In this document: piece after piece, positions 18,877 through 59,149 of the stretch
How the letters are laid out: each line of letters opens with the position of its first letter
Position numbering within the stretch: position 1 is the first letter of the stretch
Assembly (NCBI GenBank): GCA_965217585.1
Contig: OZ244561.1
Location: forward strand, 4,864,001 to 4,928,000
Length of the DNA stretch: 64,000 nt
From: Candidatus Latescibacterota bacterium
GTDB taxonomy: Bacteria; Latescibacterota; UBA2968; UBA8231
Direction: 5' to 3'
Position numbers and translations under genes: made by a program
The notes under the pieces: generated by a model
The model's input: only the letters and a program-made list of their open reading frames with translations
Database searches by the model: none
What the model was told of the DNA's origin: nothing

Positions 18877-18878
18877 CT

Positions 18879-30520: not shown

Positions 30521-33457
30521 TTATAGGAGCCGTCCATATTCGGTAAAGCCGATGAGGACGCGGGCGAAAAAAGTCAGCGCATCAAAGGCATCGTCTGCCC
30601 GCGATTCCTCGTCGAATGCCTTGACCTCCCGCTGCAACCCCACGATTGTGCGCAAATCGTAGCCGAAATACTTCGAGCGATTGCTCACATTGAGATACAA
30701 TGTGCGCTGGTCAAAACTGTTGCGTGAATTGACTCGGTCCTCGACCCGGTAGGGCAGCGGCCCCAAGCCCTGGATGCCTAGTTGTAGCTGGCTGCGCTGC
30801 ATCAGCGGCAGGGTACAGCGCAGGATGGGAATGACACTGAACTCCGAGCGCACGGTGCGGCGGGCGTAGCGGCCGTCGGTCTGGCGGTCAGCGGCCTGAT
30901 CGACCAGGCGCAGCAGCAGGACCTTGAACTGGGGTTGGATCTGCAGCCGGTGCCAATGCCAAGTGTAGTCGGCGCGGCTGACCCAAGTGAAGAAGTCGAG
31001 CCGTTTGTCGCGCTGGACTAGGCCGCCGGGCAAGGGACCGGCTTGTTGCCAGTTAAAGCGCAGACGGATCTTGTGGACCATCTGGAGGGTGGACCAGGGA
31101 TTGAGCCAGCTCTCTAGGTAGGTCTCATTAACGTAGCTGTTGCGATACAGCAGTGGGTCGGCGAGGAAATTGTTAGTGAAAGAGGGCTTGTTGCCGGCGG
31201 TCAGGCCGCGAAAATCCGTCTCTACGCTCCGCGGTCGTTCGACCAGCACGGAGAATTCGTCGGCGATATCGTCTTTGACGCGGCGCAGGTGGTTTTCGAA
31301 AAACAGCCGCTGCAGGCGTCCCAGCTCTTCGCGCCGGTAGTTCACCAGCGCGTAGGTTGACTCGTTGCGCCCGCCGCCGGCGATCTGTTCGACGTCGTAG
31401 CGCCCCACCCCCAAAGACCAGTGGGGCGTCAGATCCAGTTGGCCGAATAGGTGGACGCCGCGCTGGTCGGGGTCGTAGGGGTAGTCGGGATCTAGGTCGT
31501 CCTCGCGCACATCGGGATCGTCGTTGTTGTTGCGGTCGAGGCCGTAAAAGAAGTCGTTGGACTCGACGTAGTACATGAGGAAGGGCTCGACGTAGTCGGG
31601 CACATCGTTGAAGTTGCGGTTGGTGTCGGGTAGGCCGTCGTTGTCGTCGTCCTGGCCAGGGAACACTCCGTCGATGTCCTCGTCTTCGCGGTCGTTGGGT
31701 TGCCCCTGCAGATTGCCCACGCGCTTATCCGGGTAGCGGTCGCCGTCCTCGTTGTCCTGCACTAGGTCCCAGAAGATGGTGTTGTTGGTCAGGCCGGCCA
31801 GCGAAGTTTCTGTCAAACCGATTTCGAACGGCACAAAGGTGCGCATTCCCGTGTGGAAGTCTGGATTCATGGCAAAGGCTTCGGCCCCTAAGCGGCCCCC
31901 CTTGAACCAGCGCACGGCATTAATGAACCAAGCCGATCCTTGCTCGGAGAAGCGCGGTCCCCGGTCGTACAGCGTGGTCTGGTCCATATGCGCCGGAAAG
32001 CGAGAGTAGCGCGCTGAGCGGGCGTACTCGCCGTTGATTTCCAGGCCAACCAGGGAAAGGTGCATATCGGCGCTGTAGGTGAAAAGCGATGTGTTTTCGC
32101 CCACATTGATCCGCCTCCTGGCCAGATTGGACCCGTCTTGCACATTGCCCTCGGCGCGCAGGACCGGTCGGTAGAATGTGCTCACGTACTGGTTGGGATA
32201 GCCGCGTCCCCGCGGGTTGTTGAGATTGAGAGTGGCCACTTCTACTCGGTAGTCGTTGGCCAGCGCCGCTTCCACAGCCACCGATTCCACGTAAGGCTCC
32301 TGCGACAGATCGAAGAGGAACACCAAATGCTCGTTGCCGTCGGCTTGTAAGATCTGCTCGGACGATTCGACTTTGAAGGTGGCCAGCAGCCCTTCGAGGT
32401 TGGTATTACCACTCACATCAATGCCGGCCTCGTGGTCGGCGCGATAGAGGTAATCGGCAAAGAGCGGCATATCGTTTCTACCGCGGTAGTAGAGCGTGGA
32501 GGTCTGGTAATAACCCCGGGGGTTGGTGTAAATGGTCGGATTGAATTGGCCCGTCAGCCGGGAGATAGTGCCCACCTGCGTATCCACGCCTTCGGAGTGG
32601 CGAATTACTGTTGGCACGATATCGGGCCGGGCTTCGCCGTTCAGTACGAGTTGCGCTTCCTGCACCAAGGCACCGCCGCGGCCGTCTTGGGGCGAGTCGT
32701 CGGTAAAGCGCACCACAACTTGGTCCATGGACGGCAGGCTGGGCCTCAGGGAGCCTTTGAGGCTGTTGTTGTCTTGGGTGCTTTGGTACACGTGCGTGTT
32801 CACGCCGTTCAGGCCCAGCCGCAGGGCCCCGATATCCGTCTCCAGCCGGGTCCCCAGCAGCATGGTCGAAGCGTCGGCAAAGTGCGTGTTTTCGATGGCC
32901 CAGGGGGGAACGGATTCAACGTAAAAATGGGGGCGCTCAATGCGCGATCCCAGGAAGGTGAAGCGGGCATAAGGGGTGGCCAAGTCGAAGCGGGTGCCAT
33001 TAAAGTCAACTTGCGACAGGGTCAGTGGCGTGAAGCGGGCGATCAGCCCATCGCCGACAATGGCGCTGTATCCCCAGCCGTTATAGCTATCGCGGCCCAC
33101 CACCAGAAAATCGAAAACCGTACTCCATTGGTTGCGATCCTTGAAGATACTACTGCCGTATTCCTGACCCAGAGTGCGGCGCTCGGTCCAGTCGTATAGG
33201 TCGTAACCAGTGATGAGGGGATCGCCGAAGGAATCGTAGAAGGCCCGGGGTCGGTCGGAGTAGGGGAAGGTGTGGTCCGGGTAGTTGGAATAGCCCTGAA
33301 AGGCATAGTTATTGTACTGGGGCAACTGCCGCCAGAGAAAGTCCTGGGAAGGCAGAATCTCGGGAATGCCCAGACGCGGCGTTGCTGCCAAACTCGGGAC
33401 TATTGCCCACAGCAGCGCTAGGAGCACACAGCAGATTTGCATTGTCGGTTTTTTCAC
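30521..33457 (-). CDS. Large secreted/outer-membrane protein with Asp-rich Ca-binding-like core (paralog C)
   Basis: Signal peptide; YDSFG, RFTPLTL, DDSPQDG, VQDNEDGDRYPD..GVFPGQDDDNDGLPDTNRN..PDYVEPFLMY..PDYPYD; amphipathic strands at the C-terminus. Confidence 0.75.
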   Translation of the reverse strand: MKKPTMQICCVLLALLWAIVPSLAATPRLGIPEILPSQDFLWRQLPQYNNYAFQGYSNYPDHTFPYSDRPRAFYDSFGDPLITGYDLYDWTERRTLGQEYGSSIFKDRNQWSTVFDFLVVGRDSYNGWGYSAIVGDGLIARFTPLTLSQVDFNGTRFDLATPYARFTFLGSRIERPHFYVESVPPWAIENTHFADASTMLLGTRLETDIGALRLGLNGVNTHVYQSTQDNNSLKGSLRPSLPSMDQVVVRFTDDSPQDGRGGALVQEAQLVLNGEARPDIVPTVIRHSEGVDTQVGTISRLTGQFNPTIYTNPRGYYQTSTLYYRGRNDMPLFADYLYRADHEAGIDVSGNTNLEGLLATFKVESSEQILQADGNEHLVFLFDLSQEPYVESVAVEAALANDYRVEVATLNLNNPRGRGYPNQYVSTFYRPVLRAEGNVQDGSNLARRRINVGENTSLFTYSADMHLSLVGLEINGEYARSARYSRFPAHMDQTTLYDRGPRFSEQGSAWFINAVRWFKGGRLGAEAFAMNPDFHTGMRTFVPFEIGLTETSLAGLTNNTIFWDLVQDNEDGDRYPDKRVGNLQGQPNDREDEDIDGVFPGQDDDNDGLPDTNRNFNDVPDYVEPFLMYYVESNDFFYGLDRNNNDDPDVREDDLDPDYPYDPDQRGVHLFGQLDLTPHWSLGVGRYDVEQIAGGGRNESTYALVNYRREELGRLQRLFFENHLRRVKDDIADEFSVLVERPRSVETDFRGLTAGNKPSFTNNFLADPLLYRNSYVNETYLESWLNPWSTLQMVHKIRLRFNWQQAGPLPGGLVQRDKRLDFFTWVSRADYTWHWHRLQIQPQFKVLLLRLVDQAADRQTDGRYARRTVRSEFSVIPILRCTLPLMQRSQLQLGIQGLGPLPYRVEDRVNSRNSFDQRTLYLNVSNRSKYFGYDLRTIVGLQREVKAFDEESRADDAFDALTFFARVLIGFTEYGRLL

Positions 33458-33473
33458 GATCGGCCCATTTCCA

Positions 33474-35576
33474 TCAGTACACCACGGCTACGGCGCACAG
33501 GCGGCTTTCTTCTTCGCGCTCCAGCAGGATCCGCACTCGCACTAGGTAGAGTCCCGGTGCCACCAGTTCGCCGGTATCGTCCCTGCCGTTCCACAGGCCC
33601 GGCACCGAGGCCGACGCAGACGGTAGCCGCACGTATTCGCCCGCGCTCAGAGCGGCTGCATATAGGGCGCGCACAGGTTGGCCCCGGACATCGAATATGT
33701 CCACCTCTACTACTTGGGGCTCGCTCACCCGCGCCAGGGTGAATTCGATCACTGTTGCGTCGTTGATGCCGTCGCCGTTGGGGCTGAATGCCCTTGGCAC
33801 CGGACGCACCTGACTCAACAGGGACCCCTCGACGCCGCTGGCAGACACCTGCCACGAGCGCGGCTGACCGCTGTCTGGATCGGGTTCAATGTTCTCCTCG
33901 GCATCTAGTGTCGCGCCCCCGTCTGGACCAGAAACTTGGGCGCGGAATTGGAAGACATTGCTCAGCAGCCGTCCGCGAAAGCGCATTTCTAGGATCCCTG
34001 CTTGGCGCCAGGGCTCGGCCAGTACTAGGTCCAGCGCGGTGCTCGATGCTGTGGTTGCGGCGATTTCCACTCCAGGCGGGAGCACAATTTCCTCTAGCTC
34101 GATCTGGCTGGGCAGGGCAACGCGCACCCGCTCCACCCCCAGATCATCAGCACTGAAGTCCAACTCTAGGCGATAGGTGAAAAGGGTATCGCGGCCCAGC
34201 ACGGCCCGATTGGGTTCGACCCAGCCGCGGACCAGCGAGGCCGGCACTTGGTCGGTGAAATCGACAATCAGACTGTCCAAGCGCGGGCCCGCGTCTTCGA
34301 ATTGGGTTTCCATATGGACCCGGTACTGCAGGAAAGTGCGCGGTTCGGGCACCTGTAGCAGCGTCGGGCTGGTGTACACCGGTGCGCTCCAGTCGCTCCA
34401 GGTGCTGCCGTCGTTCGAGCTGCGGAATTGTAGCCCGAGCGCGGTGCCGGTCGGCACCTGGCCGCCCCAGCGCACGGAGGTGAAATTCTTGCGCTCGCCG
34501 GGTCGTCCTAGGTCTAGGGGCGGCGAGACAAAGCTGCCCGCAGAGGCAACACCGCTGCCCAGCACCTGAATCTCGGCTACTTTGGCGCGCTGCACTGCAT
34601 CGACCTCGGCGACGATCACTCGTAGGTAACGGGCAAAGACCGGGGCAAAGGCAATGGCTGTACGCTCGGGCTGATTAATGCCGTGCAGCACGCCCACCTC
34701 GCTCCACCCAAACTGGTCGTTACTCACTTGGACGGCGTAGCCGCGCAGGGTGTTCTGGACCAACTCGTCGGCGTTTCTGCCCTGGGTCAGGACCCGCACC
34801 TCGCTGATTAGACGCCGGTCCAACAGATCCACCTGGGCAATGGCGTTCAACTCGGTCGGATCTACGGTCCAGCCGGTATTGGAACGGCCGTCGAATACTT
34901 CCGGGCGGTTGGAAGGCAGCCTGAACGCTAGATTCTCTCCCTCCACTGAACGTAGGCTCAGGCCGCCAGCCGCCCGGCCTATGTCGATGCTACCGGGAAA
35001 GCCGGCGATGACATCCGCCTTCAGCGTATCGGACCAGCCGGATACGCCCGTCCGGTCCAGTTGGCCGCGCTGTACTTGCTGCCAGGCGTCCAGCCGGCTC
35101 ACATTAGCTGTCAGCCAGTCCGCGTCTTCTTGGGGTTCGCCGCTCCAGTACCACAAATCCTGCAAAGCACCAAAGGTGCTGACCCATAACTGCTCTGCGG
35201 CGCTCACCGCCACAACTAGGCCGCTACCGTTGCCCCGGCCGCGGTTAACGACGCGTACGGCCAGCTCGTTTTTGCGTCGCTTGAGCTCGACCGGGTACTC
35301 TTCCATGGTGGTCCAATCGTCGTCGCTGCCGATGGCTTCACCGTTGAGGAAAACCTCGTATTCGTTTACCGCGGTCAGGCGCAGCAGCGCAGATCCCTCC
35401 TCGGGTGCATTGAAGGTATGCCGGTAGTACACGGTCTGCTCCCACTGGTCAACGGTCCATTCCTCCGCATGGCCCGTGGTGCTCACCAGCAGGGCCGTGG
35501 CCAATAGCAATGGACGCAACAGCAAAGGTGGCCTCTGCGGGGCTGAGTTACTCGCTTGGTCTGTTCTCGTCCACAT
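33474..35576 (-). CDS. Secreted multi-beta-sandwich protein (discoidin-like) with FlgD-Ig C-terminus, paralog 2
   Basis: Signal peptide GHA-E; YAVQVSND..W, ARYLRV, FSPNGDGIND, WNGRDDTG..PGLYLVRV. Confidence 0.75.
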   Translation of the reverse strand: MWTRTDQASNSAPQRPPLLLRPLLLATALLVSTTGHAEEWTVDQWEQTVYYRHTFNAPEEGSALLRLTAVNEYEVFLNGEAIGSDDDWTTMEEYPVELKRRKNELAVRVVNRGRGNGSGLVVAVSAAEQLWVSTFGALQDLWYWSGEPQEDADWLTANVSRLDAWQQVQRGQLDRTGVSGWSDTLKADVIAGFPGSIDIGRAAGGLSLRSVEGENLAFRLPSNRPEVFDGRSNTGWTVDPTELNAIAQVDLLDRRLISEVRVLTQGRNADELVQNTLRGYAVQVSNDQFGWSEVGVLHGINQPERTAIAFAPVFARYLRVIVAEVDAVQRAKVAEIQVLGSGVASAGSFVSPPLDLGRPGERKNFTSVRWGGQVPTGTALGLQFRSSNDGSTWSDWSAPVYTSPTLLQVPEPRTFLQYRVHMETQFEDAGPRLDSLIVDFTDQVPASLVRGWVEPNRAVLGRDTLFTYRLELDFSADDLGVERVRVALPSQIELEEIVLPPGVEIAATTASSTALDLVLAEPWRQAGILEMRFRGRLLSNVFQFRAQVSGPDGGATLDAEENIEPDPDSGQPRSWQVSASGVEGSLLSQVRPVPRAFSPNGDGINDATVIEFTLARVSEPQVVEVDIFDVRGQPVRALYAAALSAGEYVRLPSASASVPGLWNGRDDTGELVAPGLYLVRVRILLEREEESRLCAVAVVY

Positions 35577-38302
35577 TATTGTACCGGCTCCAGTCCCACG
35601 ACCATGCGAATAAAAAACTGTTCGAAATCAATATCCTCGAATTTCCGCGTGCGGTCCTTCATGCGGCGTCGGCTGATCTCGTAGCCAGCCGTAAGTGCCA
35701 TATCGAAACCAGCGTATTCAAAGCGATTGACCAGCATGAAAAGCGCATCGCGGGTGTTGTAGTCCTGGTCCGTATTTTTGCCATTGCGGTAGATGCTAGG
35801 CAGCGCGGACAGCCCCTGGAAGCCGCCGCGCAGGAAGGTGCGCTCGGTGAATTTGAAATCGGCCACTATCATGGGAAAGCCGAAGACCTCGGATAGCGGC
35901 TGAATGCGCCCCTCGTCGTCGGTGCGGCGGCGCAGCATGAGCTTGTAGCGCGGCGATACTTCTAGCCCGCCCAAGCGCCAGCGGTAATCTGCTCGCAACA
36001 CCGAGGTCCATAGCTGAATCGCATTATCGCCGCTCCTGCCGCTGAACTGCTGGTTGACTTCGAACTTGAGATTGGCACCGACAAAGAGGTTGCGCACCCC
36101 CCGGAAGGCGAAGTCGACGAAGGCGGTGTTGACGGCGCTGTCCAGCAGCAACAATTCGTCTTCGACAAAGGTTTCAATGGTGGCACGCGGATTAAAGATG
36201 TCGAAATTGGCCACGTCGCCAAAGCGGAATACCCCGTCGGGGATATCGTCCTGCACCCGCTTTAAGAAGTCCACTGCCTGCAGTTCGCCCCAACTGCCGA
36301 AGCGCCGCTGGTACTCGGCTTTGGCGTACCACACATCCGCCCGTTGGCCGCCCCAAATGGCCTCTATATCGTAGCGTCCGAAGGTCAGTTCCAGCGCCCG
36401 CTGGGGCTGAAAGCGCACAAAGAGATGGTAGCCTTGGCGGTTGAGATCGTACGGGTAGTCCGGCTTATTGTCGTTTTCGCGCACGTCAATGACGCCATTG
36501 TTGTTCAAATCGTCGCCGTAGTCGAAATCGTCTGGATTGACGTCGTAGAGCAAAAAGGGCTCGAAATAATCGGGTACCTGGTTGCGATTGCGGTTGGTGT
36601 CGGGGGTGCCGTCTTGGTCCTTGTCCAGGCCGGGGAAAATTCCGTTCTGGTCCTCGAAACTGGGTATGAAGAAATCGTCTGGAAAAGGATCCTTGTCGTC
36701 GTTGTCGTCAACGGTGTTCAGGTCGAAGGTATTGTTCAGGCTCTCGTCGGTTGAACCTAGCTGACCGGCGAATGGCCCGGTGCCAGTGGCAGCGTATGCC
36801 CCCAGCGTCAGATCGGTCACCGAAAGCTGCGTGCTGTACTCGGGACTGAGACGGAACAATTCCCCGCCAGCGGCAATTTTTGGGGTGAATTCCCGCTCGA
36901 TATTGAGCAGATAGGCGTGCCCACCGCGGTCGTGGCGCTGGCCGCGGTGGTCGTGGACGGGGTACTGGAGGAAGTTGAAGCTGTGGGCCCACTCGCCCTT
37001 GAAGTGGAAGCCTTTTACGTCCGTGCTCAGGCCTAGGCCAGTCAAGGTGAGGCCGGTCTGGCGGCCGTAGTCAAAGCGGATCTGCTCGACATCAGCACCA
37101 GCGGATCCACGTCCTTTGGAACCGGCCAAACTTTTGTAAAAAGTTGCGCGGTTGCGCTGAGCCGGTTCATTGCGGGATTCGCGCGGATCAACGGCGTAGA
37201 TTTCCGACACGCTGACGCGATAATTGCCGCTCAGTAGCGCCTCGAAGGAGGCCGACACCACTTCCTCGTCTGCGGGCAGCGGGAACCAGAACAATACATA
37301 GTTTTTGCCATCGGCGCGGAAAAAACCACCGGGTTCGGGGGTCTGCAGCGGATAGGTGCCCAAGCGGCGGCCCTGCAACACTTCCACGTAGGGCGGAATC
37401 GGCCGTTTGAAGAAGAAGTCCTTGTTGGGAAAGCTCGGATTAAAATCCTCAGTGTTGTGACGCGTGACAAAAGATTCGATATCGTCTCGCCGCTCGCCGT
37501 TGAGCAGGATATTGACGTCGAAGACCCGGGCCCCATTGCCGTCCAAGGGCGAGGTGTCTTCAATGCGGACCACCAAATAATCGATTACCTGTACCCGGTT
37601 GGGCAACTGACCCTTCATGCCGTTCCAATCGGGCGGCGAGCGGGTGTCAATGCGGAAGAGGTTCACATAAGAGGTACTCAGGTCGATGGTGCGCCAGCGC
37701 CATTGCCAGTGGCCGCCCAACAGGTACGAGGCGAAGGCGGCGGTGCTCAAGGCGGCGGCGTCCTTTTGGGAAAGTACGGGCTTGTCCATGCGCGAGGCTA
37801 GGACCGAGAAGTTGTGCCTTTCATTGGCCAGGTCCCAGCGGATGCCATTGAGGGCGGCCAGATCTAGGATCAACGGCGAGAAATGGGTGCGGATACGGTC
37901 GCCGATGATCAGCCGCGTCTGCCAGCTCTTATAGCTATCGTCGGCCACCATTAGGCGGTTGAGAAAACCCTCGTAATTATTCGGCTTGGCAATGGTGCTG
38001 CCGCTGAATACCTGGGCCGGATCGTCGAAGCGGCGGTTTTCCCGCAGGTGGTACACCTCGACGCCGTTTACCAGAAAGTCGCCGAACTCGTCGTACACGG
38101 GATTGGCCGTGCGCGTGATGACATTGCGGGGCCAGGTCCGGTAGCCCTCTAGGCCGTAGTTGTCGTAGGTGAGCAGGCCGGGGCGGTATAGCATCATGCG
38201 GGCACCTGTGGTGTGGGGATCGAGCAGTCTGGGCTCGCCTTCGCCACGCACCATCGTTGCTAGGGCCGCTATAAGCGCGCCTATTGAGATCGCTTTCAGC
38301 AT
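35576..38302 (-). CDS. Large secreted/outer-membrane Asp-rich protein (paralog B)
   Basis: Signal peptide; YDEFG, NGIRWD, VDDNDDKDPFPD..GIFPGLDKDQDGTPDTNRN..EPFLLY..DLNNNGVIDVRENDNKPDYPYD. Confidence 0.75.
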   Translation of the reverse strand: MLKAISIGALIAALATMVRGEGEPRLLDPHTTGARMMLYRPGLLTYDNYGLEGYRTWPRNVITRTANPVYDEFGDFLVNGVEVYHLRENRRFDDPAQVFSGSTIAKPNNYEGFLNRLMVADDSYKSWQTRLIIGDRIRTHFSPLILDLAALNGIRWDLANERHNFSVLASRMDKPVLSQKDAAALSTAAFASYLLGGHWQWRWRTIDLSTSYVNLFRIDTRSPPDWNGMKGQLPNRVQVIDYLVVRIEDTSPLDGNGARVFDVNILLNGERRDDIESFVTRHNTEDFNPSFPNKDFFFKRPIPPYVEVLQGRRLGTYPLQTPEPGGFFRADGKNYVLFWFPLPADEEVVSASFEALLSGNYRVSVSEIYAVDPRESRNEPAQRNRATFYKSLAGSKGRGSAGADVEQIRFDYGRQTGLTLTGLGLSTDVKGFHFKGEWAHSFNFLQYPVHDHRGQRHDRGGHAYLLNIEREFTPKIAAGGELFRLSPEYSTQLSVTDLTLGAYAATGTGPFAGQLGSTDESLNNTFDLNTVDDNDDKDPFPDDFFIPSFEDQNGIFPGLDKDQDGTPDTNRNRNQVPDYFEPFLLYDVNPDDFDYGDDLNNNGVIDVRENDNKPDYPYDLNRQGYHLFVRFQPQRALELTFGRYDIEAIWGGQRADVWYAKAEYQRRFGSWGELQAVDFLKRVQDDIPDGVFRFGDVANFDIFNPRATIETFVEDELLLLDSAVNTAFVDFAFRGVRNLFVGANLKFEVNQQFSGRSGDNAIQLWTSVLRADYRWRLGGLEVSPRYKLMLRRRTDDEGRIQPLSEVFGFPMIVADFKFTERTFLRGGFQGLSALPSIYRNGKNTDQDYNTRDALFMLVNRFEYAGFDMALTAGYEISRRRMKDRTRKFEDIDFEQFFIRMVVGLEPVQ

Positions 38303-38306
38303 AGAC

Positions 38307-41024: not shown

Positions 41025-41025
41025 C

Positions 41026-43077: not shown

Positions 43078-43094
43078 TGCTCAGCTATTGCTCG

Positions 43095-43541
43095 CTATGC
43101 TCCCGACTCGAAGTCGAGGCTTACAGTGATGGCTTTGGTAATCGGATTGACCACCAGACGGTGATATTGGCCGAAGGGCTTCCAGCGCTTTGAGCCGTTT
43201 CCCCAGACGTGTTCCGGCTCTTGCTCCGGCACTGACAGGCCAATGCGCCGCAGTGCTTTCGTCGTATCAAAGGGGTCCATCTTTTTGAATGTATAGGTCA
43301 CGTAAGACGCGCTGCCATGTATCAAATCCACGTAAACCCAGGTGCTATCTCCATCCGCATCTCTCCACTGCAGAGTGGTTACTTTCTCGGAGCGCGCAAA
43401 GTCGAAATCCGGCTCGCCTAGGCGCTCCTTCAGGGTTGCTCCGGTTTTGTTCAATATCTGGTGCACAGCGAGCAGCGGCACTTCTTCCCGGCCGCAAGCG
43501 GCGATAAAAAAGAAAGTTGCAAAGAATATGCTGGAGTGCAC
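43095..43541 (-). CDS. Small lipoprotein
   Basis: Hydrophobic N-terminus with IAAC lipobox; within the operon. Confidence 0.65.
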   Translation of the reverse strand: MHSSIFFATFFFIAACGREEVPLLAVHQILNKTGATLKERLGEPDFDFARSEKVTTLQWRDADGDSTWVYVDLIHGSASYVTYTFKKMDPFDTTKALRRIGLSVPEQEPEHVWGNGSKRWKPFGQYHRLVVNPITKAITVSLDFESGA

Positions 43542-45996: not shown

Positions 45997-46003
45997 GGTA
46001 CCC

Positions 46004-49000
46004 CTATAAGCGGTTGGCTTCGATCCACTCTTTGTGCATGCGGGCAAAGCGATGGGCTTCGGCCTGTTCGTCGGTTAGGCGACTGAGGACTTGGTCGTAA
46101 ACCTGCACCGCGTCCTTCCACTGCCCCAATGACTCGTAGCAGACCCCCATATTGCTCAGCGCTCCGATCTCGCTTTCGGTGCCGGGATAGTCGCGCGCGA
46201 CTTCCGCAAAGCCGGCTGCCGCCCGGCGGAACTGGGCCGGGTTCTGCTCTTCAAGGGCTTGGGCAAAGACCGCCTCGACTTCGGCGTAGCGCAGGTAAGC
46301 CACTACTTCGCGCAGGTCATCTATTAATTCGGGAACCTTTTGCGCCACCGGACTGCTGGGAAAGCGGCGGATGACTTCTTGGTAGGCCTGCAGGGCTTTA
46401 TCGTATTCCTTCTCATTGTAGTAAAAGTCGCCGATGGTGAACTGGGCATTGGCCGCCAGAGCACTGCCCGGGTAGTCGGCAACCACGCTTTGCAAGGCGG
46501 CGATGGCTTGGGACTCCCGTTTCATATTGAGATGAGACCAGGCCAGATTGTAGAGGGCATCGTCGGCCAGATCCGCTTGCGGGTGCATTTCGAGCAATTG
46601 CTGGTAATGCGCTTGCGCCGTCTCGAATTGTCCCAAGTTGTAATGGGCTTCCCCGGCCCTGAACAGTGCGTCGGGTGCCAACTCGCTTTGGGGATAGGCG
46701 CTGGCTAGGTCGGCAAAGGCGGCAGCGGCTTGCTCGAACTGAGTCAGGTTGAAATGGGCGTATCCCAGATAGTAGAGGGCGTAGGGGCGGTTGCGATGAT
46801 CGGGCGTTTTCTGCAGATAAGTTTCGAGCACTCGCACGGTTCCCCCGAGATCGTCCCGCTCGAATAGGGCCTGCCCCAGAGCAAAGCGCATATCGGCCGA
46901 ATAATAGGAGTCCGGGTAGCGGGACAGTGCCTTTTGGTAGGTGTTGATTAGTGCCTGGGTATCACCCCGTGAGGCGTGGGCGTCGCCCATTAGGAAGTAG
47001 GCTTTCTCTTGGAGGAAATAGGGTTGCTCACCGCGCAGAGCGGGCAAGTCCAAGGAGAGAATCCGCCGGCATACGGCCTCAACTTGGTCGAATTCATTCA
47101 GGTTGTAGTGAAGTTCGGCCAGCACCACTAGGTGTTCGGCGCGCTCGACTGAATCGGTTGCCGCCGCTACTAGGGCCCGGTAGTCCTCGATGGCTTCTTC
47201 GTCCCGCCCTAATTCGAGATGGGCCAGACCAAGCATGCGCTGGGCCGCCCCTGCCAACTCCTCGTTGTCGCTGTGCAGTAGTGCTTTTAGGTCGGCTGTC
47301 GCCTCCTGATAGCGCTTGAGCTTGAGCAGGCTTACGCCGCGGCCGTAGAGGGCACCCCGGCGCACCTCGTCGTCGTCGGCCAGTTCGATGGTGCGTCCCA
47401 GTGCTTCCACCGCGGCGCCGAATGTCTCCGTTTCGATCAGGGTGCGCCCTTTCATGTAGTGGAGACGGGCCTGTTCGTTTTTAGCTATACTGACCTCCAA
47501 GCCCGCCTCCAGCGCCTCCAACGCCCCCGAGAAATCGCCCTCCGCAGCCAGCAGGTTGCTCGTTTCGAGCATGGCCTTGGAAAACAAATTCGAAGTGCGG
47601 TCAAGCTGTCGGAATAGCTCCACTGCCCTGCCGGGCTGGCCCAAATCCCGGTAGCACAGAGCCAGTTCGAAACGGGCCCCGTGGCGCTGCGGGGACTCGG
47701 AGTATTTTTGTAGAATGGATTCGTAAGCGGCGATGGCCCGCTTGAAGTTTTCTTGCTGGTAGTGGATGCGGCCCAGTTGGAAAAGAGCGCTGCGTACGTA
47801 GTCGGGGTCTTGGTCGGCGTCGACGATCTCTTGATAGAGCTCCAGCGCCTGGACAGTATGCTCAGCACTGCCCAGAGTGCCGAGCATTTGGTTGCACAGG
47901 GCGATATTAAATGGGGTAGCAGCTAGGGATAGTTCGCTGCTGGGGTAGTCGGCGGCAATGCGTTCGTACGCGGCGATCGCCTGTGCATAGGCCAATCGGG
48001 CGTCGTCGGCCGCGGCTTGGCGCTGAACCTCAGCCCGCTCGTAATGGGCCCGCCCGATCTTGTAAAGGGCCCAGGGCGGTGCCAGACCAGCGGCTTTGGC
48101 CACATCCCCGTACGCATCTAGGTAGAGTTGATATTCGGCGATGGCGCGTTGATAGTTGCCAAGGCCGTAGTAGTGTTCGGCCAGCAGGGATTGCATGCTG
48201 GCCTGAAAAATGCGGTTGCGGCTACCGTCGATGGCCTCGCGGTAGGTGCGCACTGCCGCTTGGTCGTCGCCGCCTTGGGTGTACATATCGGCTAGGCGGA
48301 TATAGGCCTCGGCCACCAGTTTCTGTTCCTGAGCGAAGGCGGTTATAACCTTGCTATAGGCGGTAGCGGCACCGGCAAAATCCCCGCTTTGGGCGCGGCA
48401 ATCGCCTATCTTGATCTGGGCTTTGGCCGCCAATTCTAGCGCAGTCTCGTCTACTAGGCCGGCTATTTTCTCACGCCGCATCTTCAGCAGGTCGCGCTCG
48501 CTGAGGTGGTCGATGTCTTGGCGGTCTACCACTTCCTGGTACCAGAAAGTGGCCTGATCGTAGCGCTGCTGCAGAAAGTAGGCTTCGCCGATTTGGAAAA
48601 GCGCCCGGTCTGCGCGGTACCCTTTGGGGAAGTGCCGCCCCAATTCCTCAAAGGCGGTGATGCTTTCCCGGTACTGCCCCAATTCAAAATGGGCCCAGCC
48701 GATATTGTAGAGGGCGTTGTCGAGGTATTGGCTGTCGGGATATTTCTGCACAAAAGCCCGGCCCTCTGCTATGGTGCGCTGGTAATCGCCGCTTGCATAG
48801 AGGCAGTTGACTAGCCGATTGCGGGCCAGTTCCCGCATCTGCGGAGAGGTGGTCTGGGCTTCGGTCTTGAGGAAGTAGGCACCCGCTTCCACGAAGTCGG
48901 TCGCGGTCCGTTCGGCGAGTTGGCGTTGGCGTTCGGGGTCGCGTGCCCGGGCGGCGCGGCGCTGGGATTCCTGGGCGCGCTTAAAGTAGCTATTACCCGT

Positions 49001-49249
49001 CTGGTAGAGGGCGATTTCTTTGATCGGGGCCGCAACCTCGCCGACCGCGGCCTTGATCTCCGCTGTGTAGAGCAGCGGGCTTTCAATGGCATTGATGCGC
49101 TCGTAGGTTGCGATGGCTTGCTCGTAGTCCTCGGCGGCGTAGAATTTCTGTGCCTGCTTAAAAGAAGCTTGTATTTCGTCCGGGGTCGGTACGAAGTACG
49201 AGCCTACTACTAGACCCAGCAAAGTACCTACAATGAGCAGCGGTGTCAT
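46004..49249 (-). CDS. Giant TPR protein (YbgF/BamD-like repeats) with N-terminal anchor
   Basis: More than 20 repeats of the ..YP.S....ALY..G type; ATG 49249 after GAGAGG. Confidence 0.9.
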   Translation of the reverse strand: MTPLLIVGTLLGLVVGSYFVPTPDEIQASFKQAQKFYAAEDYEQAIATYERINAIESPLLYTAEIKAAVGEVAAPIKEIALYQTGNSYFKRAQESQRRAARARDPERQRQLAERTATDFVEAGAYFLKTEAQTTSPQMRELARNRLVNCLYASGDYQRTIAEGRAFVQKYPDSQYLDNALYNIGWAHFELGQYRESITAFEELGRHFPKGYRADRALFQIGEAYFLQQRYDQATFWYQEVVDRQDIDHLSERDLLKMRREKIAGLVDETALELAAKAQIKIGDCRAQSGDFAGAATAYSKVITAFAQEQKLVAEAYIRLADMYTQGGDDQAAVRTYREAIDGSRNRIFQASMQSLLAEHYYGLGNYQRAIAEYQLYLDAYGDVAKAAGLAPPWALYKIGRAHYERAEVQRQAAADDARLAYAQAIAAYERIAADYPSSELSLAATPFNIALCNQMLGTLGSAEHTVQALELYQEIVDADQDPDYVRSALFQLGRIHYQQENFKRAIAAYESILQKYSESPQRHGARFELALCYRDLGQPGRAVELFRQLDRTSNLFSKAMLETSNLLAAEGDFSGALEALEAGLEVSIAKNEQARLHYMKGRTLIETETFGAAVEALGRTIELADDDEVRRGALYGRGVSLLKLKRYQEATADLKALLHSDNEELAGAAQRMLGLAHLELGRDEEAIEDYRALVAAATDSVERAEHLVVLAELHYNLNEFDQVEAVCRRILSLDLPALRGEQPYFLQEKAYFLMGDAHASRGDTQALINTYQKALSRYPDSYYSADMRFALGQALFERDDLGGTVRVLETYLQKTPDHRNRPYALYYLGYAHFNLTQFEQAAAAFADLASAYPQSELAPDALFRAGEAHYNLGQFETAQAHYQQLLEMHPQADLADDALYNLAWSHLNMKRESQAIAALQSVVADYPGSALAANAQFTIGDFYYNEKEYDKALQAYQEVIRRFPSSPVAQKVPELIDDLREVVAYLRYAEVEAVFAQALEEQNPAQFRRAAAGFAEVARDYPGTESEIGALSNMGVCYESLGQWKDAVQVYDQVLSRLTDEQAEAHRFARMHKEWIEANRL

Positions 49250-49304
49250 AGGACCTCTCAAAGAAAGAGCACACCAGCACACCAAATTCTGCAGATTAGC
49301 CAAA

Positions 49305-49333
49305 ACTGTAAGAAAAGGCTAATGCGGTTGCAA
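49305..49333 (-). promoter_or_regulatory. Putative sigma70 promoter for the envelope operon
   Basis: TTGCAA-17 nt-TACAGT on the minus strand, about 55 nt upstream of ATG 49249. Confidence 0.4.
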
Positions 49334-49602
49334 GTATTTCTCTATGCGGTTTGGTAACGGGTTTTTTACGCCATGAGAGGAAACGGGGCAGATGTTCCTT
49401 TGGCATGTTGCTAGAGGCGAAGTATATTATCGGCCGTGCGCTGGAGCGGCTAAATTTGCACGGCCCTGCGCGTCCTATTCGAGTCTATGAGCCGCACAAA
49501 CTCATTGCGGGAGGCATGCGTTATGGAAACCCTATTAGCCGGCGGCATCCTGATGATTCCCTTGGGCCTGTGCGCCGTCCTCTCACTAGCATTCATTCTA
49601 GA

Positions 49603-50673
49603 TAGGACTTACGCAGTTGGATAGTTTAGGATAAGATAGAAGCTACTCCCCCTCCGCCGCGAGCCAGTCCGATGAACCCAGCCAAGTGTGCAGACCACGA
49701 CTACATCCACTTCCTGATCGCCGCTCAGTGCGCCTTCAGTTGTACTGAGGCCGCCCGCTGTCATCCTGAAGGGGGCCCTACGCCATCCCATGACGCCTTC
49801 ACGCGCCTGCTCACAAGACAGCCTCCCGATACCGAGGCGTTGTGGCGAGAGACGCAGGGACTGGTCACCCTTCAGGGCGGCGTGTTGGCTCTGGACGATT
49901 CCACCTTGGACAAGCCCTATGCCAAGCGGATCGAACTGGTGACGCGCCATTGGAGCGGCAAACATCACCGGGTGGTCTTGGGCATCAATCTCATAAGTAT
50001 GGTCTGGTCGGACGGCCTCGCTTGCATTCCCTGCGACTTCCGCGTCTATGACAAGCCGATCGGGGGCCACAACAAGAACGAGCACTTCCGGGCGATGCTG
50101 GCCAGTGCCCAAGCGCGCGGCTTTCAGCCCGAGTGCGTGGTGTTCGATAGCTGGTATGCTTCCCTCGACAACCTCAAGCGGATTCGCGCCTACGATTGGT
50201 CTTGGCTGACGCGCCTCAAGGCCAACAGACAGGTCAACCCCGATGGGAGCGGCAACGTGGCGATCGGCTCTGTTGCCATCGAACCGGAAGGCCGGCGGGT
50301 GCATCTCAAGGGCTATGGGTTCATCCAGGTGTTTCGGACGGTCTCGGCAAACGGAGACGCGCAATACTGGGCAACCAACGACCTGGAGATGGCTGTCAGC
50401 CAGTTTGAGGCGTGGTCCAAGCGGGCGTGGTCCATTGAGACCTACCACCGAGGCCTCAAGCAGTGTTGCGGCGTCGAGCAGGCGCAGGTTCGGTCGGCAC
50501 GGGCGCAGATGAACCATATCGCGTTGTCGATTCGCGCCTTCGTGCGGTTGGAGGTGCATAGACTCCAAACCGGTGTCAGTTGGTATGAAGCCAAAAGGAA
50601 CATCATCCGAGAGGCTGTCCGGCTGTATCTGCAACGACCACTGCACAGGCTCAACTCAACTGCGTAAGTCCTA
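49603..50673 (+). mobile_element. IS701-family insertion sequence (1071 bp)
   Basis: Perfect 17-bp TIRs TAGGACTTACGCAGTTG (49603-49619 / 50657-50673), flanked by 5-bp direct repeat CTAGA (49598-49602, 50674-50678). Confidence 0.93.
49672..50667 (+). CDS. IS701-family DDE transposase
   Basis: SHDAFTRLL, LALDDSTLDKPY, VFDSWY, WSIETYHRGLKQCCG; stop codon lies within the right TIR. Confidence 0.92.
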   Translation: MNPAKCADHDYIHFLIAAQCAFSCTEAARCHPEGGPTPSHDAFTRLLTRQPPDTEALWRETQGLVTLQGGVLALDDSTLDKPYAKRIELVTRHWSGKHHRVVLGINLISMVWSDGLACIPCDFRVYDKPIGGHNKNEHFRAMLASAQARGFQPECVVFDSWYASLDNLKRIRAYDWSWLTRLKANRQVNPDGSGNVAIGSVAIEPEGRRVHLKGYGFIQVFRTVSANGDAQYWATNDLEMAVSQFEAWSKRAWSIETYHRGLKQCCGVEQAQVRSARAQMNHIALSIRAFVRLEVHRLQTGVSWYEAKRNIIREAVRLYLQRPLHRLNSTA

Positions 50674-51344
50674 CTAGAAAGGGTCTGGGTACTCAGTCGT
50701 ATTCCCGGCGAGCAGGCCGCCCAACAGACTCTAGAAGAGGCGGAAAGAGCCTTAGCGGATCGGGGGCAAGAAGCTGCCGCCCAGTACTGCGCCGACCACA
50801 AAGGCCCTCTGTGTTTTATTTTTGCCTCCTTGCTCAAGCGCTTTGACACCCTCATGCTCGAACGCCGCGAATTCCGTCCCACCAACGAACGCCTAGCCCG
50901 CTTGGCTGGACAGGCCGGTGCCGGAGACCTCTCCCGCTTTATGCTCGAGCAAAAGGAACTTTCCGACCTCAAGGACGATCTCGTGCTGGAGACGGACGAA
51001 GCCGGCAAGGTCTATCTAAGTCGCTACCTAGTGGTGCTCAATACCATCGGCAATATCTCGCCGTTGCTGGGTCTGTTCGGCACCATCCTCGGCATGATCA
51101 CCTCCTTCAAGGCCATTGCCGTAGCCGGCACGGGCGATCCCAAGGTGGTGGCCAGCGGCATTTCGCAGGCCTTGGTCACTACGGCCACGGGGCTGGCGAT
51201 CGCCATCCCCACCATCGTGGCCTACCGCTCGCTGGCCCGGCGCGCCGACCACCACCGCAGCCGTCTCGAAGTCTATGGTCTGGCTTTCGTCAACACCTTG
51301 TTGGTGGTCGGTCAGGAGCAATTGGACGGGGAGGCAGCTGGCTG

Positions 51345-51764
51345 ATGGCGCTGGTGCTTGGCCGCAAACGAGAAAGCCTGACCAGAGAGGAAGGCCCGGA
51401 TCTGACGCCGCTGATCGACTGCGTTTTCCTGCTGCTCATTTTCTTCATGGTCACCACCGTCTTCATCCACTCCAAGGGACTAGACGTGGATCTTCCGGCC
51501 CAGAGCCAGTCGACGGAACAGCAGGAGAAGAAAGACATCAATATCCACATCGACGCCCAAGGACGCATCCAGATCGGCGGCGAGGACGTGGTGCCCAAGG
51601 CCTTGGTCGAGCGGATCCAGCGGGCAATGAAAGAGGCCAACAACGATAACATCATCATCCAGGGACACGTCGATGTTGCCCAAGAGCACGTGGTCTTGGT
51701 GGTGGATGCGGCCAAAGCGGCTGATGTCGCTGGTATAGCTTTCGCCAAAGAGGAGGCCCTCTAG
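51345..51764 (+). CDS. exbD: ExbD/TolR biopolymer transport protein 1
   Basis: LTPLIDCVFLLLIFFMVTT transmembrane motif with the essential Asp; VDLP. Confidence 0.92.
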   Translation: MALVLGRKRESLTREEGPDLTPLIDCVFLLLIFFMVTTVFIHSKGLDVDLPAQSQSTEQQEKKDINIHIDAQGRIQIGGEDVVPKALVERIQRAMKEANNDNIIIQGHVDVAQEHVVLVVDAAKAADVAGIAFAKEEAL

Positions 51765-52180
51765 TGATGCAGCGGACATCCATATTGGAAGACCCAGAGG
51801 ATGAAAACCTCAACCTGACGCCGCTGATCGACTGCGTTTTTCTGCTGCTCATTTTCTTCATGGTCACCACTGTTTTTAAGCAGCCCTATAGTCTGCAGGT
51901 GGAGTTGCCCCAGGCCCGTCAGGCTACCATCGTCGAAGAGAAGAAATTGGTGGCCTCGATCGACAAGATGGGTGCCATGGAGCTCAACCGCCAGCTAGTG
52001 AGTATGGCAAAACTTCCAACGTTGCTCGCCCGCGAGAAAGAGACGACCCGCAGTTTGACGTTGATCATTCGCACGGACAAGAAGACCCGGCACGGTCTTG
52101 TGCTCGAGGTCATGGAGATTGCCAAGCGGCTCGACGTCGACAAGGTCGTTTTGGCCACCGAAGAGGAAGGGGAAATCTGA
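51764..52180 (+). CDS. exbD: ExbD/TolR biopolymer transport protein 2
   Basis: NLTPLIDCVFLLLIFFMVTT, VELPQA, IRTDK..HG.V.EVM. Confidence 0.92.
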   Translation: MMQRTSILEDPEDENLNLTPLIDCVFLLLIFFMVTTVFKQPYSLQVELPQARQATIVEEKKLVASIDKMGAMELNRQLVSMAKLPTLLAREKETTRSLTLIIRTDKKTRHGLVLEVMEIAKRLDVDKVVLATEEEGEI

Positions 52181-52211
52181 GCAGCTTCTGAAGCGATCAA
52201 CAGGAACCCCC

Positions 52212-52955
52212 ATGCGCTATCTCATCGCCATCCTTTGCCTAGTCTTGGCCGCTTCCGCCGCTCCCGCCGAGGATGCCCTGCCACACCACACGATCCTCCG
52301 CGCCGCCGGGTCTATCGCCGTGGACGGCCACCTCGACGAGCCTTCTTGGGGGGCCGCCCAAGTCATCGACCAGTTCGCTTTTCCTTGGTGGACTGAAGGG
52401 GCCAAGGATCGCACCGAAGCTCGCTTGCTGTGGGACGATGACCATCTGTACGTCGCCTTCACCGCGCACGATCCGCACATTTCGGCGACCCTGACCAAGC
52501 GCGACAGCCCGGTATCGCGCGACGATTGCGTCGAGGTATTCATCGCCCCAGACACCAGCCAAGTCACCAGCTATTTCAACTTTGAGTTCAACGCCTTGGG
52601 CACGATTCTGGACCGCTCGCCGCACGCCGATCGTTCGTCCTCATGGAACGGCGAGGGCGTGCAGGTGGCCATCGACATCGAGGGCACACTCAACCAAGAG
52701 ACGGATCAGGACACGCTCTGGACCGCTGAAATCGCCCTTCCCTTTGCCGTTTTCGACCCGTACGCCCCCCACCTGCCCCCGACCGCCGGCGACGTGTGGC
52801 GACTCAACCTGTACCGCACGGGCGGTGCGGTCAATCTGCAGTACATCACTTGGTCTAATACCTTGACGCCCAAGCCGCAATTCCACCTGCCCCAGCGCTT
52901 TGGGGTAGTGCATTTCGACGGCCGGCCGGTATTGAGCCAAGACGAAGCCGAGTAG
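52212..52955 (+). CDS. Secreted CBM9-like / DOMON-like carbohydrate-binding protein
   Basis: Signal peptide; IAVDGHLDEPSW, LLWDDDHLYVAF, DCVEVFI, WTAEIALPF, WRLNLYR, FHLPQRFG. Confidence 0.85.
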   Translation: MRYLIAILCLVLAASAAPAEDALPHHTILRAAGSIAVDGHLDEPSWGAAQVIDQFAFPWWTEGAKDRTEARLLWDDDHLYVAFTAHDPHISATLTKRDSPVSRDDCVEVFIAPDTSQVTSYFNFEFNALGTILDRSPHADRSSSWNGEGVQVAIDIEGTLNQETDQDTLWTAEIALPFAVFDPYAPHLPPTAGDVWRLNLYRTGGAVNLQYITWSNTLTPKPQFHLPQRFGVVHFDGRPVLSQDEAE

Positions 52956-55677: not shown

Positions 55678-55706
55678 TCCGCAGATGGACGCAGATGGAC
55701 GCAGAA
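55678..55706 (+). repeat. Short tandem repeat (CGCAGATGGA)x2.6
   Basis: TCCGCAGATGGACGCAGATGGACGCAGA directly after the terminator. Confidence 0.6.
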
Positions 55707-55762
55707 TAGTAGAAACAAGACGATCCGCAGCTCGAATCGTTCAAGTCATTCAGGATTGCTAT

Positions 55763-59070: not shown

Positions 59071-59149
59071 GGAGGGACTCCTCTGGGTGGATTTTCTTTT
59101 TAGGCCCTAATCAAATCACAAACAACTAGAGAGCCAATTGAGGTGTCAA

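Follow-up and report, generated by a model that had tools for sequence, protein, structure and literature searches.

Introduction

Three ways are understood in which 5:2 proton motors perform work on the outer membrane, namely the Ton, Tol and Agl-Glt systems. Here, we describe a gene cluster within a 64,000-nt stretch of a Candidatus Latescibacterota genome (assembly GCA_965217585.1, contig OZ244561.1, positions 4,864,001 to 4,928,000 of the forward strand; hereafter the window) that combines genes for an ExbB/ExbD-type motor with those for a DUF4159 protein, a giant TPR protein, three ~900-residue barrel candidates and secreted lectin-like proteins. As set out in the relevant sections of two papers (PMC11761067, PMC3169522), the Glt machinery of Myxococcus xanthus comprises the barrels GltA/B/H, a propeller adhesin, a TPR protein at the periplasmic face, the TonB-like proteins GltG/J and the AglRQS motor, the latter built from one TolQ-like and two TolR-like subunits. 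A section of PMC12204202 further reports vWA-headed, motor-driven transducers from the Planctomycetes–Verrucomicrobia–Chlamydiae (PVC) group, Proteobacteria, Bacteroidetes and Rhodothermaeota, whose function it gives as unknown, and names SHLS as the motif by which TonB and TolA bind the motor.

The best explanation for the region is that it encodes one conserved trans-envelope apparatus. We read this apparatus, with a probability of roughly 0.4, as a Tol/Glt-like machine that transduces force to a platform in the outer membrane, on which lectins tagged with a C-terminal domain (CTD) are displayed. Judged by sequence models, the locus appears to belong in full to none of the Ton, Tol-Pal, Glt and type IX secretion (T9SS) systems. 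The outer-membrane protein family is new here, and the transducer head is likely to be so too; the general kind, an envelope machine driven by a proton motor, is already known.

By composition, the cluster resembles Agl-Glt in its one TolQ-like and two TolR-like motor genes. Further likenesses are an AgmX/PglI-type domain on a TonB-like connector (NF033768, 62.1 bits vs a cutoff of 40) and, as far as those sections describe Glt, a large periplasmic TPR protein, three paralogous barrels, a propeller surface protein and whole-machine paralogs within one genome (Glt and Nfs). In contrast, the GltG and GltJ equivalogs are missed (33.2 bits vs 650 and 18.6 vs 450), no GltD/E/C model is among the 19 NCBIfam matches of the TPR protein, and the ~900-residue barrels are unrelated in sequence to those of Glt, of which GltH measures 209 residues (Table 1 of PMC3169522, in the part that lists it). 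The TonB-CTD-like domain is carried by a lipoprotein here, as opposed to a bitopic inner-membrane protein in Glt, the surface proteins use T9SS-type CTDs instead of lipid anchors, and DUF4159 is not among the Glt proteins named in the relevant sections of PMC3169522 and PMC11761067.

We found no published account of this cluster in open-access text, where DUF4159 occurs only in the Pfam paper and the titles and abstract openings retrieved for DUF5683 are unrelated to such a cluster. Latescibacter together with 'type IX secretion' returned nothing from the same body of text, no T9SS was among the matches listed for Zixibacteria and KSB1, and the accessible part of the 2015 Latescibacteria genome paper refers to generic TonB import only.

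A conserved cluster of envelope genes

The open reading frame (ORF) listing of the window contains nine co-directional minus-strand genes, running from 49303 (or 49249) down to 30521 (Table 1) and packed as tightly as the original prediction, made from the sequence without database searches, had described. The TPR and DUF4159 genes overlap by 44 nt when counted from the TTG start of the latter and lie 7 nt apart when counted from its ATG at 45996; the junctions that follow are, in order, a 4-nt overlap, a 1-nt overlap, gaps of 17, 1 and 4 nt, another 1-nt overlap and a 16-nt gap. Export signals, predicted for nearly all of the products, were evident from the translations: a signal peptide on all five large secreted proteins, a lipobox on the 411- and 148-residue proteins, and an N-terminal hydrophobic anchor on the DUF4159 and TPR proteins. 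On the opposite strand lies a divergent exbB-exbD-exbD-CBM9 unit. Promoter and terminator scans gave no signal above shuffle expectation, a promoter-like match in the intergenic region (49400–49428, plus strand) included. Pfam and NCBIfam confirmed the TPR, DUF4159, ExbB, twofold ExbD, CBM9 and AgmX assignments of the original prediction and gave F5/8 type C domains as well. It had recognised no classical TonB-dependent receptor, TolB or Pal; by either database, families of Plug, TonB-dependent receptor, TolB and Pal/OmpA are absent from the 44 window ORFs scanned. It had placed the left end of the cluster at 30521, which proved too narrow, since conservation extends to the CTD protein at 26894–28771. 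The 516-residue protein encoded in between has no Pfam, NCBIfam or PDB sequence match and is loosely tied to the cluster, its gene being kept downstream only in near-identical loci (L001–L004, L006 and L059).

With each species represented by one genome, a scan yielded 547 stretches that encode a relative, and 66 loci were kept. Most of these come from metagenome-assembled genomes (MAGs) titled Latescibacterota, some from Gemmatimonadota/-etes, Handelsmanbacteria, KSB1, Zixibacteria and Zipacnadia, and one from Myxococcales; seven (L001–L006 and L059) are orthologues 94–95% identical to the window. Gene content was assessed by a six-frame census with hidden Markov models (HMMs) on the barrel strand. 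Because flanks end at 10 kb or at the contig end and only this strand was counted, all figures are lower bounds, and motors on the opposite strand (in the window and L009–L011) fall outside them. Beside the barrel (66 of 66 loci), the census found genes for a lectin/CTD protein in 58, TPR in 53, DUF4159 in 52, the AgmX-type lipoprotein in 47, a CTD protein of the 625-residue type in 40, DUF5683 in 23, a small fn3-like lipoprotein in 22, ExbB in 19, ExbD in 12, a small lipoprotein of the 148-residue type in 19, a ~310-residue periplasmic protein without family in 14 and a PorV/PorQ-like barrel in five.

The commonest gene order is CTD protein, lectin, three barrels, TPR, (DUF5683, fn3-like), DUF4159, lipoprotein, (~310-residue protein), exbB, exbD, exbD. 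The exported ~310-residue protein stands between the short lipoprotein and exbB (e.g., L036:21251-22159) and occurs in L024, L027–L029, L036, L038, L039, L042, L045, L047, L048, L052, L062 and L064; the window is devoid of it. The motor genes lie between the fn3-like gene and that for DUF4159 in L037 and L049. In L064 (KSB1) and L065 (Zixibacteria), whose single barrel shares 28–29% identity, the order is FlgD-tail, lectin, barrel, TPR, (DUF5683, fn3-like), exbB/exbD, DUF4159, AgmX, with a single exbD as well as a gene of PorV/PorQ-like type (84.1 and 66.9 bits, respectively, vs 90). An exbB-exbD(-exbD) set is found within the operon in L036, L037, L042, L049, L062, L064 and L065 and in divergent orientation, as in the window, in L009–L011; that it lies inside the operon in many loci is a reason to regard the motor as belonging to the system. 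A CBM9 orthologue adjoins exbD in L062.

The cluster spans several candidate phyla within the Fibrobacteres–Chlorobi–Bacteroidetes (FCB) group, in some assemblies in multiple copies, and its genes co-occur far beyond chance, down to 28–30% identity. Fourteen assemblies contribute two or three of the 66 loci each, which indicates the whole machine to be paralogous within genomes. The original prediction had proposed to check for co-occurrence elsewhere, which is seen here as far as MAGs of KSB1 and Zixibacteria; its view of a lineage-specific system has to be given up in view of this spread. Synteny over 66 loci, under several phylum labels and down to 28% identity, contradicts a fortuitous adjacency of unrelated envelope genes that form no single system, and we regard this explanation as very improbable.

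Three paralogous candidates for an outer-membrane platform

The proteins of 905, 908 and 978 residues share 30–32% pairwise identity over about 850–1000 residues, in line with their initial assignment as paralogs. An AlphaFold2 model of the 908-residue paralog, the one of the three that was folded, was built from a 22-sequence alignment and consists mostly of long beta-hairpins (pLDDT 68.7, pTM 0.69), with about 23 long strands in its DSSP string. Confidence is low at residues 14–100 and 510–620. The first ~100 residues are thus poorly modelled though conserved in sequence; the stretch at 510–620 is Asp-rich, with many invariant Asp, Asn and Pro. When compared with the PDB by Foldseek, the model matched outer-membrane barrels only (MtrB, SlpA, LptD, OccK porins and the barrels of TonB-dependent transporters (TBDTs)), the best being 6r2q_B (MtrB), 8ae1_A (SlpA) and 8h1s_C (LptD) with E-values of 7e-9 to 6e-7 and TM-scores of 0.15–0.25. 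The modelled protein looks like a large outer-membrane beta-barrel of clear fold class and without a close relative. This agrees with the Asp-rich, outer-membrane-like character first ascribed to the three paralogs, and the model is neither that of a classical TBDT nor that of a soluble enzyme, either of which would have counted against the original prediction. Unlike MtrB, SlpA and LptD, the barrels here come without an SLH domain, an LptD N-domain or a cytochrome partner.

The barrel family has no Pfam or NCBIfam model. None of the three large proteins matched Plug, TonB_dep_Rec or any NCBIfam entry. Plug and TonB_dep_Rec were likewise absent from all 30 barrel relatives scanned, 29 of which had no Pfam match at all, with one sub-threshold SlpA_C match (30.2 bits vs 35) in the remaining one; the 978-residue paralog also scored below threshold for SlpA_C (PF21620, 18.3 bits vs 35). 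A family profile recruited 887 clusters from a library of 1.84 billion proteins, 292 of them at E <= 1e-30, and no PDB sequence. A language-model search of the ESM Atlas returned only unnamed clusters, from Latescibacterota and Gemmatimonadota. The nearest named look-alike was DUF6029, a family of barrels similar to TonB-dependent receptors, at 0.89, which lies below the reliability line of the tool and serves as a lead only. These results bear on the main rival to a force-transducing machine, namely energised glycan import. Here, the barrels would correspond to TBDTs/SusC with a mini-plug or none at all, glycans would be captured at the surface by the CBM32-type lectins and the CBM9 protein in the manner of SusD or of surface glycan-binding proteins, and ExbBD would gate the barrels via DUF4159/AgmX. 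The DUF6029 lead would suit it; the failure of the barrels to match Plug or TonB_dep_Rec speaks against it.

Among loci with both lectin and TPR genes, near-identical ones dropped, 31 have three barrels, ten have one and two have two. A FastTree phylogeny of 113 barrel sequences (midpoint root; L001–L006, L059, sequences outside 840–1110 residues and those containing X left out) resolved into clades that track gene position. The clade of the 905-residue paralog (support 0.945) occupies the first position in 29 of its 30 locus sequences, and that of the 978-residue paralog the last position in 31 of 31, with a support of just 0.098. Middle-position barrels are split over two clades (0.409 and 0.818), and most single-barrel loci form a clade of ten of their own (0.847). 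Clades that follow position, together with three-barrel loci, are the pattern expected of an old hetero-oligomeric platform, and we infer that the three barrels may constitute one whose members diverged anciently. That the three barrels are distinct and keep a fixed order points toward a hetero-complex and away from a single channel, a further argument against import. A complex prediction of barrel residues 22–120 with residues 285–411 of the 411-residue lipoprotein, run without controls, scored 0.01 vs a mark of 0.32, which speaks neither for nor against binding.

An interrupted motor, a putative transducer and putative periplasmic connectors

The motor genes were assigned by Pfam, with 96.7 bits (cutoff 22.9) for MotA_ExbB (PF01618) in the 3' piece of exbB; the two ExbD paralogs are 39% identical to each other. 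The divergent exbB-exbD-exbD-CBM9 unit of the original prediction is therefore real as far as its families go; its exbB is not intact, and the inserted element had been overlooked. A 1071-bp element of the IS701 family cuts exbB after codon 26. The 5' piece, which starts at 49523 behind a GGAGG and holds the first transmembrane (TM) helix, matches positions 2–31 of an ExbB HMM from related loci, and the 3' piece matches positions 26–240 of 240. Indeed, an intact 248-residue homologue (P0290) equals both pieces placed end to end (100% identity over residues 1–26 and 97% from residue 26). The element is bounded by perfect 17-nt inverted repeats at 49603–49619 and 50657–50673, the only two copies of this repeat in the window (none of 100 shuffles reached two), encodes a transposase at 49672–50667 (NF049921, 391.6 bits vs a cutoff of 250) and stands between the two copies of a 5-bp direct repeat, CTAGA, at 49598–49602 and 50674–50678. 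Transposase equivalog, terminal inverted repeats and target duplication identify it as an IS701-family member. Given how clean the target duplication is, the insertion looks simple and recent. As assembled, the locus has no intact stator channel gene. With exbB disrupted, this copy is probably unpowered unless a paralogous motor steps in, which flags it as probably inactive and matters when choosing a locus for expression.

By NCBIfam, the motor proteins match TolQ/TolR models slightly better than ExbB/ExbD models, and miss both equivalogs (84.7 bits vs 221 for TolQ; 67.0 and 67.5 vs 127.3 for TolR). The TPR protein matches TIGR02795 (CpoB/YbgF) with 271.1 bits vs 90.1 over seven stretches, TIGR03302 (BamD subfamily) with 185.1 vs 81.4, and Pfam TPR families as well. 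Its N-terminal hydrophobic segment is followed by a conserved stretch of Pro-Thr-Pro-Glu type, and we read the protein as a putative periplasmic scaffold, either anchored or released. A CpoB/YbgF module is shared with Tol-Pal, in a protein that is ~1080 residues long and anchored here; the CpoB model NF008068 has 263 positions. This invites the alternative of a Tol-Pal-like or SlpA-like device for envelope maintenance that tethers or remodels the outer membrane with respect to the cell wall and has the lectins as incidental passengers. The CpoB/YbgF modules of the TPR protein, the slight preference of the motor for TolQ/TolR models, the SlpA tether barrel as second-best fold match of the 908-residue model and the weak SlpA_C matches would all fit. 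We nevertheless deem it improbable, given that TolQ and TolR equivalog cutoffs are missed widely, that no TolB, Pal, OmpA-like or SLH domain is found in the window, and that two to three copies per genome with a tight lectin/CTD linkage are unlike a housekeeping tether.

The DUF4159 protein (PF13709, 102.4 bits vs 25.9; all of 18 homologues match the family) begins with a short cytoplasmic segment, followed by one TM helix, a linker that is basic and rich in Pro, Lys and Arg, and a globular head; the TM helix and basic, Pro-rich linker recur in all homologues listed. Its profile matches PDB entry 4i66 at 9e-20, the sole relative found among the PDB sequence searches, which were empty or uninformative for the 625- and 700-residue proteins and the 411-residue lipoprotein. 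Across 44 non-redundant homologues, the TM helix contains a His in 18 and S-x3-H in 14, the latter being the core of the SHLS motif. Topology is shared with the vWA-headed transducers, as is, in L037 and L049, the order TPR, tolQ-like, two tolR-like, transducer; the S-x3-H of those 14 homologues, which excludes the window copy, is a third likeness to what PMC12204202 describes in the section concerned. Unlike theirs, the head here is DUF4159 by Pfam, compared by sequence family only, and no vWA family was detected on 18 homologues even at E <= 1; that section mentions no barrel, lectin or CTD partner. Apparent fusions of DUF4159 with AgmX, and other fusions, in L015, L033, L041, L047 and L048 were read as stop-free extensions of the frame into neighbouring genes (in L033, the DUF4159 match ends at HMM position 291 of 395).

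The 411-residue lipoprotein, the AgmX/PglI-type connector, was modelled with a pLDDT of 88.8. Foldseek aligned its C-terminal domain with the CTDs of TonB and TolA (probability 0.95–1.00, target-normalised TM-score up to 0.56, E >= 0.02) and its N-domain with beta-sandwiches of MPT63/YjhA type; by sequence, TIGR01352 stayed below its cutoff (17.6 vs 27.1) and PF03544 did not match. The N-domain is the conserved part: a stand-alone lipoprotein of ~255 residues is common in the protein database, and about half of the lipoprotein homologues in the loci measure 250–320 residues and lack the TonB-like domain. ExbB and ExbD as the Ton motor and the TonB-CTD-like fold of the lipoprotein are shared with Ton and count in favour of import. 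In contrast to Ton, the window holds no Plug or TBDT, a giant TPR protein and a DUF4159 head are added, and the features of TonB are distributed, with the TM helix and linker on the DUF4159 protein and the CTD-like domain on the lipoprotein; no single protein combines SHLS, a Pro-rich linker and TonB_C.

Lectin-like surface proteins and the type IX secretion alternative

The 683- and 700-residue proteins are paralogs with FlgD-like tails, as had been proposed, and 57% identical. Both pass F5_F8_type_C (30.0 and 43.4 bits, respectively; cutoff 28.2), while a galactose-binding-like N-domain and tail matches to CHU_C and FlgD_ig stay below threshold. The 625-residue protein has a signal peptide and a FlgD_ig tail (59.3 bits vs 27) and passes TIGR04183, the T9SS type A sorting domain (24.6 vs 23; 33.9 for its homologue in L036). 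The lectin tails are homologous to this tail (pairwise E 6.7e-6 for the 700-residue protein; HMM E 2.4e-11 and 1.4e-7). Look-alike clusters of the 625-residue protein contain Por_Secre_tail in 99–100% of members, and FlgD_ig, some with NHL propeller repeats; its N-terminal ~500 residues match no family and may form a propeller. The early suggestion that the FlgD tails resemble T9SS-type signals is supported by these matches. In the KSB1 locus, the CTD-tailed protein encoded upstream of the lectin is a giant of 1920 residues (L064:593-6355).

Another alternative is that the cluster serves specifically to secrete or anchor CTD proteins, as a device that is T9SS-like or accessory to T9SS, with the barrels, and PorV/PorQ-like proteins where present, translocating or retaining the CTD proteins, the TPR protein in the role of PorW/SprE, and ExbBD replacing or supplementing PorLM. 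CTD-tagged cargo beside outer-membrane barrels, a large TPR protein and a proton-driven motor are features shared with T9SS, and so may be the PorV/PorQ-like genes of five of 66 loci. In addition to the sorting domain and the homologous lectin tails, the order cargo, PorV/PorQ-like, barrel would be explained: this gene stands between lectin and barrel in L037, L049, L051, L064 and L065, with 84.1, 76.4, 67.6 and 66.9 bits vs 90 in four of them. In L021, a gene for ~326 residues without any match takes the same position. The partial PorW/SprE match of the TPR protein (116.4 bits vs 250) points the same way; however, it is sub-threshold and typical of TPR cross-matches. Against this alternative, the window type has no PorV/PorQ-like gene, and the barrels have no SprA match in Pfam or NCBIfam and no SprA structure among the Foldseek matches listed. 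Their interpretation as enlarged PorV/PorQ proteins was rejected at an hhalign probability of 0.2%. Neither SprA nor PorK/L/M/N nor PorU is present in the 64-kb window, the nearest match to a T9SS core protein being an FGE-sulfatase-type protein at 56.9 bits vs 350 for GldK, and the motor is of ExbBD rather than PorLM type. We consider a secretion device unlikely. In this cluster, sorting domains of T9SS type are linked to a motor of ExbBD type, which bears on the handling of CTD proteins outside Bacteroidota.

A proposed force-transducing machine or energised glycan import

Contacts between the proteins, the direction in which work is done and any physiological role are all inferred in the following model, which by analogy would obey the logic of Tol-Pal and Agl-Glt, namely force exerted on an adhesin-carrying outer-membrane platform. 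At the inner membrane, a proton channel of ExbB/TolQ type with two different ExbD/TolR subunits would be combined with a DUF4159-headed protein resembling a force transducer and with a ~1080-residue TPR scaffold of CpoB/BamD-like modules. The lipoprotein, composed of an Ig-like sandwich and a TonB/TolA-CTD-like domain, and the small lipoprotein would act as connectors toward the outer-membrane module, i.e. the three barrel paralogs, each of which has a conserved segment at its N-terminus and a loop that is Asp-rich and calcium-binding-like. The surface module would consist of Sec-exported CTD proteins, two of them CBM32-type lectins and one a probable propeller protein. Proton flow via ExbB-ExbD would drive the DUF4159 transducer, mechanical work would be done on the three-barrel platform via the TPR scaffold and the lipoprotein connector, and the platform would keep the CTD-tagged lectins at the cell surface. 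As the likely output, the cell would, in an energised manner, attach to glycan surfaces or polymers, move along them or handle them. The original prediction had left the function open between secretion, surface assembly, motility and uptake, a choice that our analysis narrows modestly.

Several observations weigh against such a machine. The barrel model is of moderate confidence (pLDDT 68.7), a small N-terminal plug is compatible with it, and just one of the three paralogs was folded. The window copy of DUF4159 and its clade do not have the TM His, which is missing from 26 of the 44 homologues, so that TonB-like coupling is not universal by that motif. Similarly, the lipoprotein is devoid of the TonB-CTD-like domain in roughly half of the loci, so that a universal link to the barrels would have to be sought elsewhere. 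At the locus, no counterpart of the cytoplasmic platform of Glt is seen. Gliding is not known to us to have been reported in these phyla; among the open-access matches listed, no title or abstract opening deals with a cluster of this kind, and one paper refers to gliding only in connection with algal EPS. Finally, nutrient capture would account for the lectins, the CBM9 neighbour and the sulfatase, GH95 and sugar-related genes no less well than adhesion.

The last point returns to glycan import, which can further draw on the lectin and CBM9 domains, on a neighbourhood of glycan-catabolism genes (GH95, two sulfatases, an FGE-type enzyme, a solute-binding protein and six ~500-residue paralogs) and on the presence of several loci per genome, which recalls polysaccharide utilization loci (PULs). 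However, each locus is equipped with a motor, a TPR gene and a DUF4159 gene of its own, which is not so in PULs, the flanks of the 66 loci contain no recurrent set of CAZymes or inner-membrane sugar transporters, and core composition is invariant rather than variable with substrate. We regard import as rather unlikely. The Tol/Glt logic is favoured over that of a Ton importer because there is no plug, because TonB-like features are spread over two proteins, because each locus has its own motor, scaffold and transducer, and because a fixed barrel triad is linked to adhesin-like proteins.

A bolder possibility, which we hold tentatively and with some doubt, is that the cluster represents a previously unrecognised class of proton-driven cell-surface machines in FCB-group candidate phyla. 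In these, an ExbBD stator would act through a DUF4159 transducer and the giant TPR protein on a hetero-trimeric platform of ~900-residue barrels that moves, exposes or translocates lectins with T9SS-type CTDs, in convergence with Agl-Glt and with gliding/T9SS of Bacteroidota. If true, this would provide the first functional context for DUF4159 and for an outer-membrane protein family of 887 clusters. It would also add a further type of output for proton motors, one that is widespread in uncultured glycan-degrading phyla and in which the outer-membrane module is entirely new and the transducer head differs from that of TonB.

Features and surroundings of the cluster

Table 1. Features of the cluster and its borders, in window coordinates; scores are in bits, followed by the cutoff.
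Feature	Position	Strand	Basis or remark
625-residue secreted T9SS-type CTD protein	26894..28771	-	FlgD_ig, TIGR04183
516-residue protein without signal peptide or family	28932..30482	-	38 nt downstream of last barrel gene
Barrel paralog 3, 978 residues, 'last-position' subfamily	30521..33457	-	paralogy, tree
700-residue secreted lectin-like protein	33474..35576	-	F5/8 type C (CBM32-type) and CTD-like tail
Barrel paralog 2, 908 residues, the modelled one	35576..38302	-	AlphaFold2 and Foldseek
Barrel paralog 1, 905 residues, 'first-position' subfamily	38307..41024	-	paralogy, tree
683-residue secreted lectin-like protein, paralog of the 700-residue one	41026..43077	-	F5_F8_type_C
148-residue lipoprotein without family	43095..43541	-	lipobox
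411-residue lipoprotein, AgmX/PglI C-terminal domain	43541..44776	-	NF033768
DUF4159 protein, TonB-like topology	44773..46047	-	PF13709
TPR protein, about 1080 residues (1080-1099)	46004..49303	-	likely start is ATG at 49249
Divergent intergenic region, TPR operon vs exbB	49304..49522		
exbB 5' fragment	49523..49602	+	26 codons (49523-49600), forming TM1, plus 2 bases of split codon 27
IS701-family insertion sequence, 1071 bp	49603..50673	+	transposase and inverted repeats
exbB 3' fragment	50674..51345	+	MotA_ExbB
ExbD/TolR paralog 1	51345..51764	+	PF02472, 94.6 vs 25.4
ExbD/TolR paralog 2	51764..52180	+	PF02472, 96.6 vs 25.4
Secreted CBM9-like protein	52212..52955	+	PF16011, 63.5 vs 25; likely ATG at 52212 inside ORF 52098-52955

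Outside the cluster, the glycan-catabolism genes are located at 10749–13112, 16396–17145, 57439–59070, 59138–60589 and 55685–57418 (GH95, FGE-sulfatase-type enzyme, two sulfatases and extracellular solute-binding protein). The 516-residue protein is one of six ~500-residue paralogs without signal peptide or Pfam match, encoded at 3390–4967 (minus strand), 6714–8411 (plus), 8320–9951 (plus), 13931–15685 (plus), 22221–23738 (minus) and 28932–30482 (minus) and related by HMM E-values of 3e-11 to 8e-56. One of them shows a weak match to GH130-like beta-1,2-mannobiose phosphorylase (28.1 bits vs 450), and a related gene for ~351 residues follows the cluster in L008–L011; the paralogs may represent an expanded cytoplasmic family for glycan processing. 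A 646-residue DUF6785/DUF6784 protein (20274–22214, minus; 278.9 bits) adjoins one of the six. Two more TPR proteins flank the cluster and an FG-GAP/ASPIC protein, kept in the near-identical loci, lies downstream of it (25063–26514, minus; 23846–25060, plus; 52991–54472, plus). Further away, a BlaR1-like M56 peptidase and a BlaI/CopY-type repressor (17266–19268, minus) form a sensor-repressor pair. Base composition departs from the G+C content of about 0.60 found elsewhere at positions 1–2000 (0.465), which include an AAA_21/AAA_15 AbiEii-like ATPase (42–1253) and look like a foreign or defence-related islet; at positions 60001–62000, over NUDIX and HAD hydrolase genes, the G+C content is 0.536.

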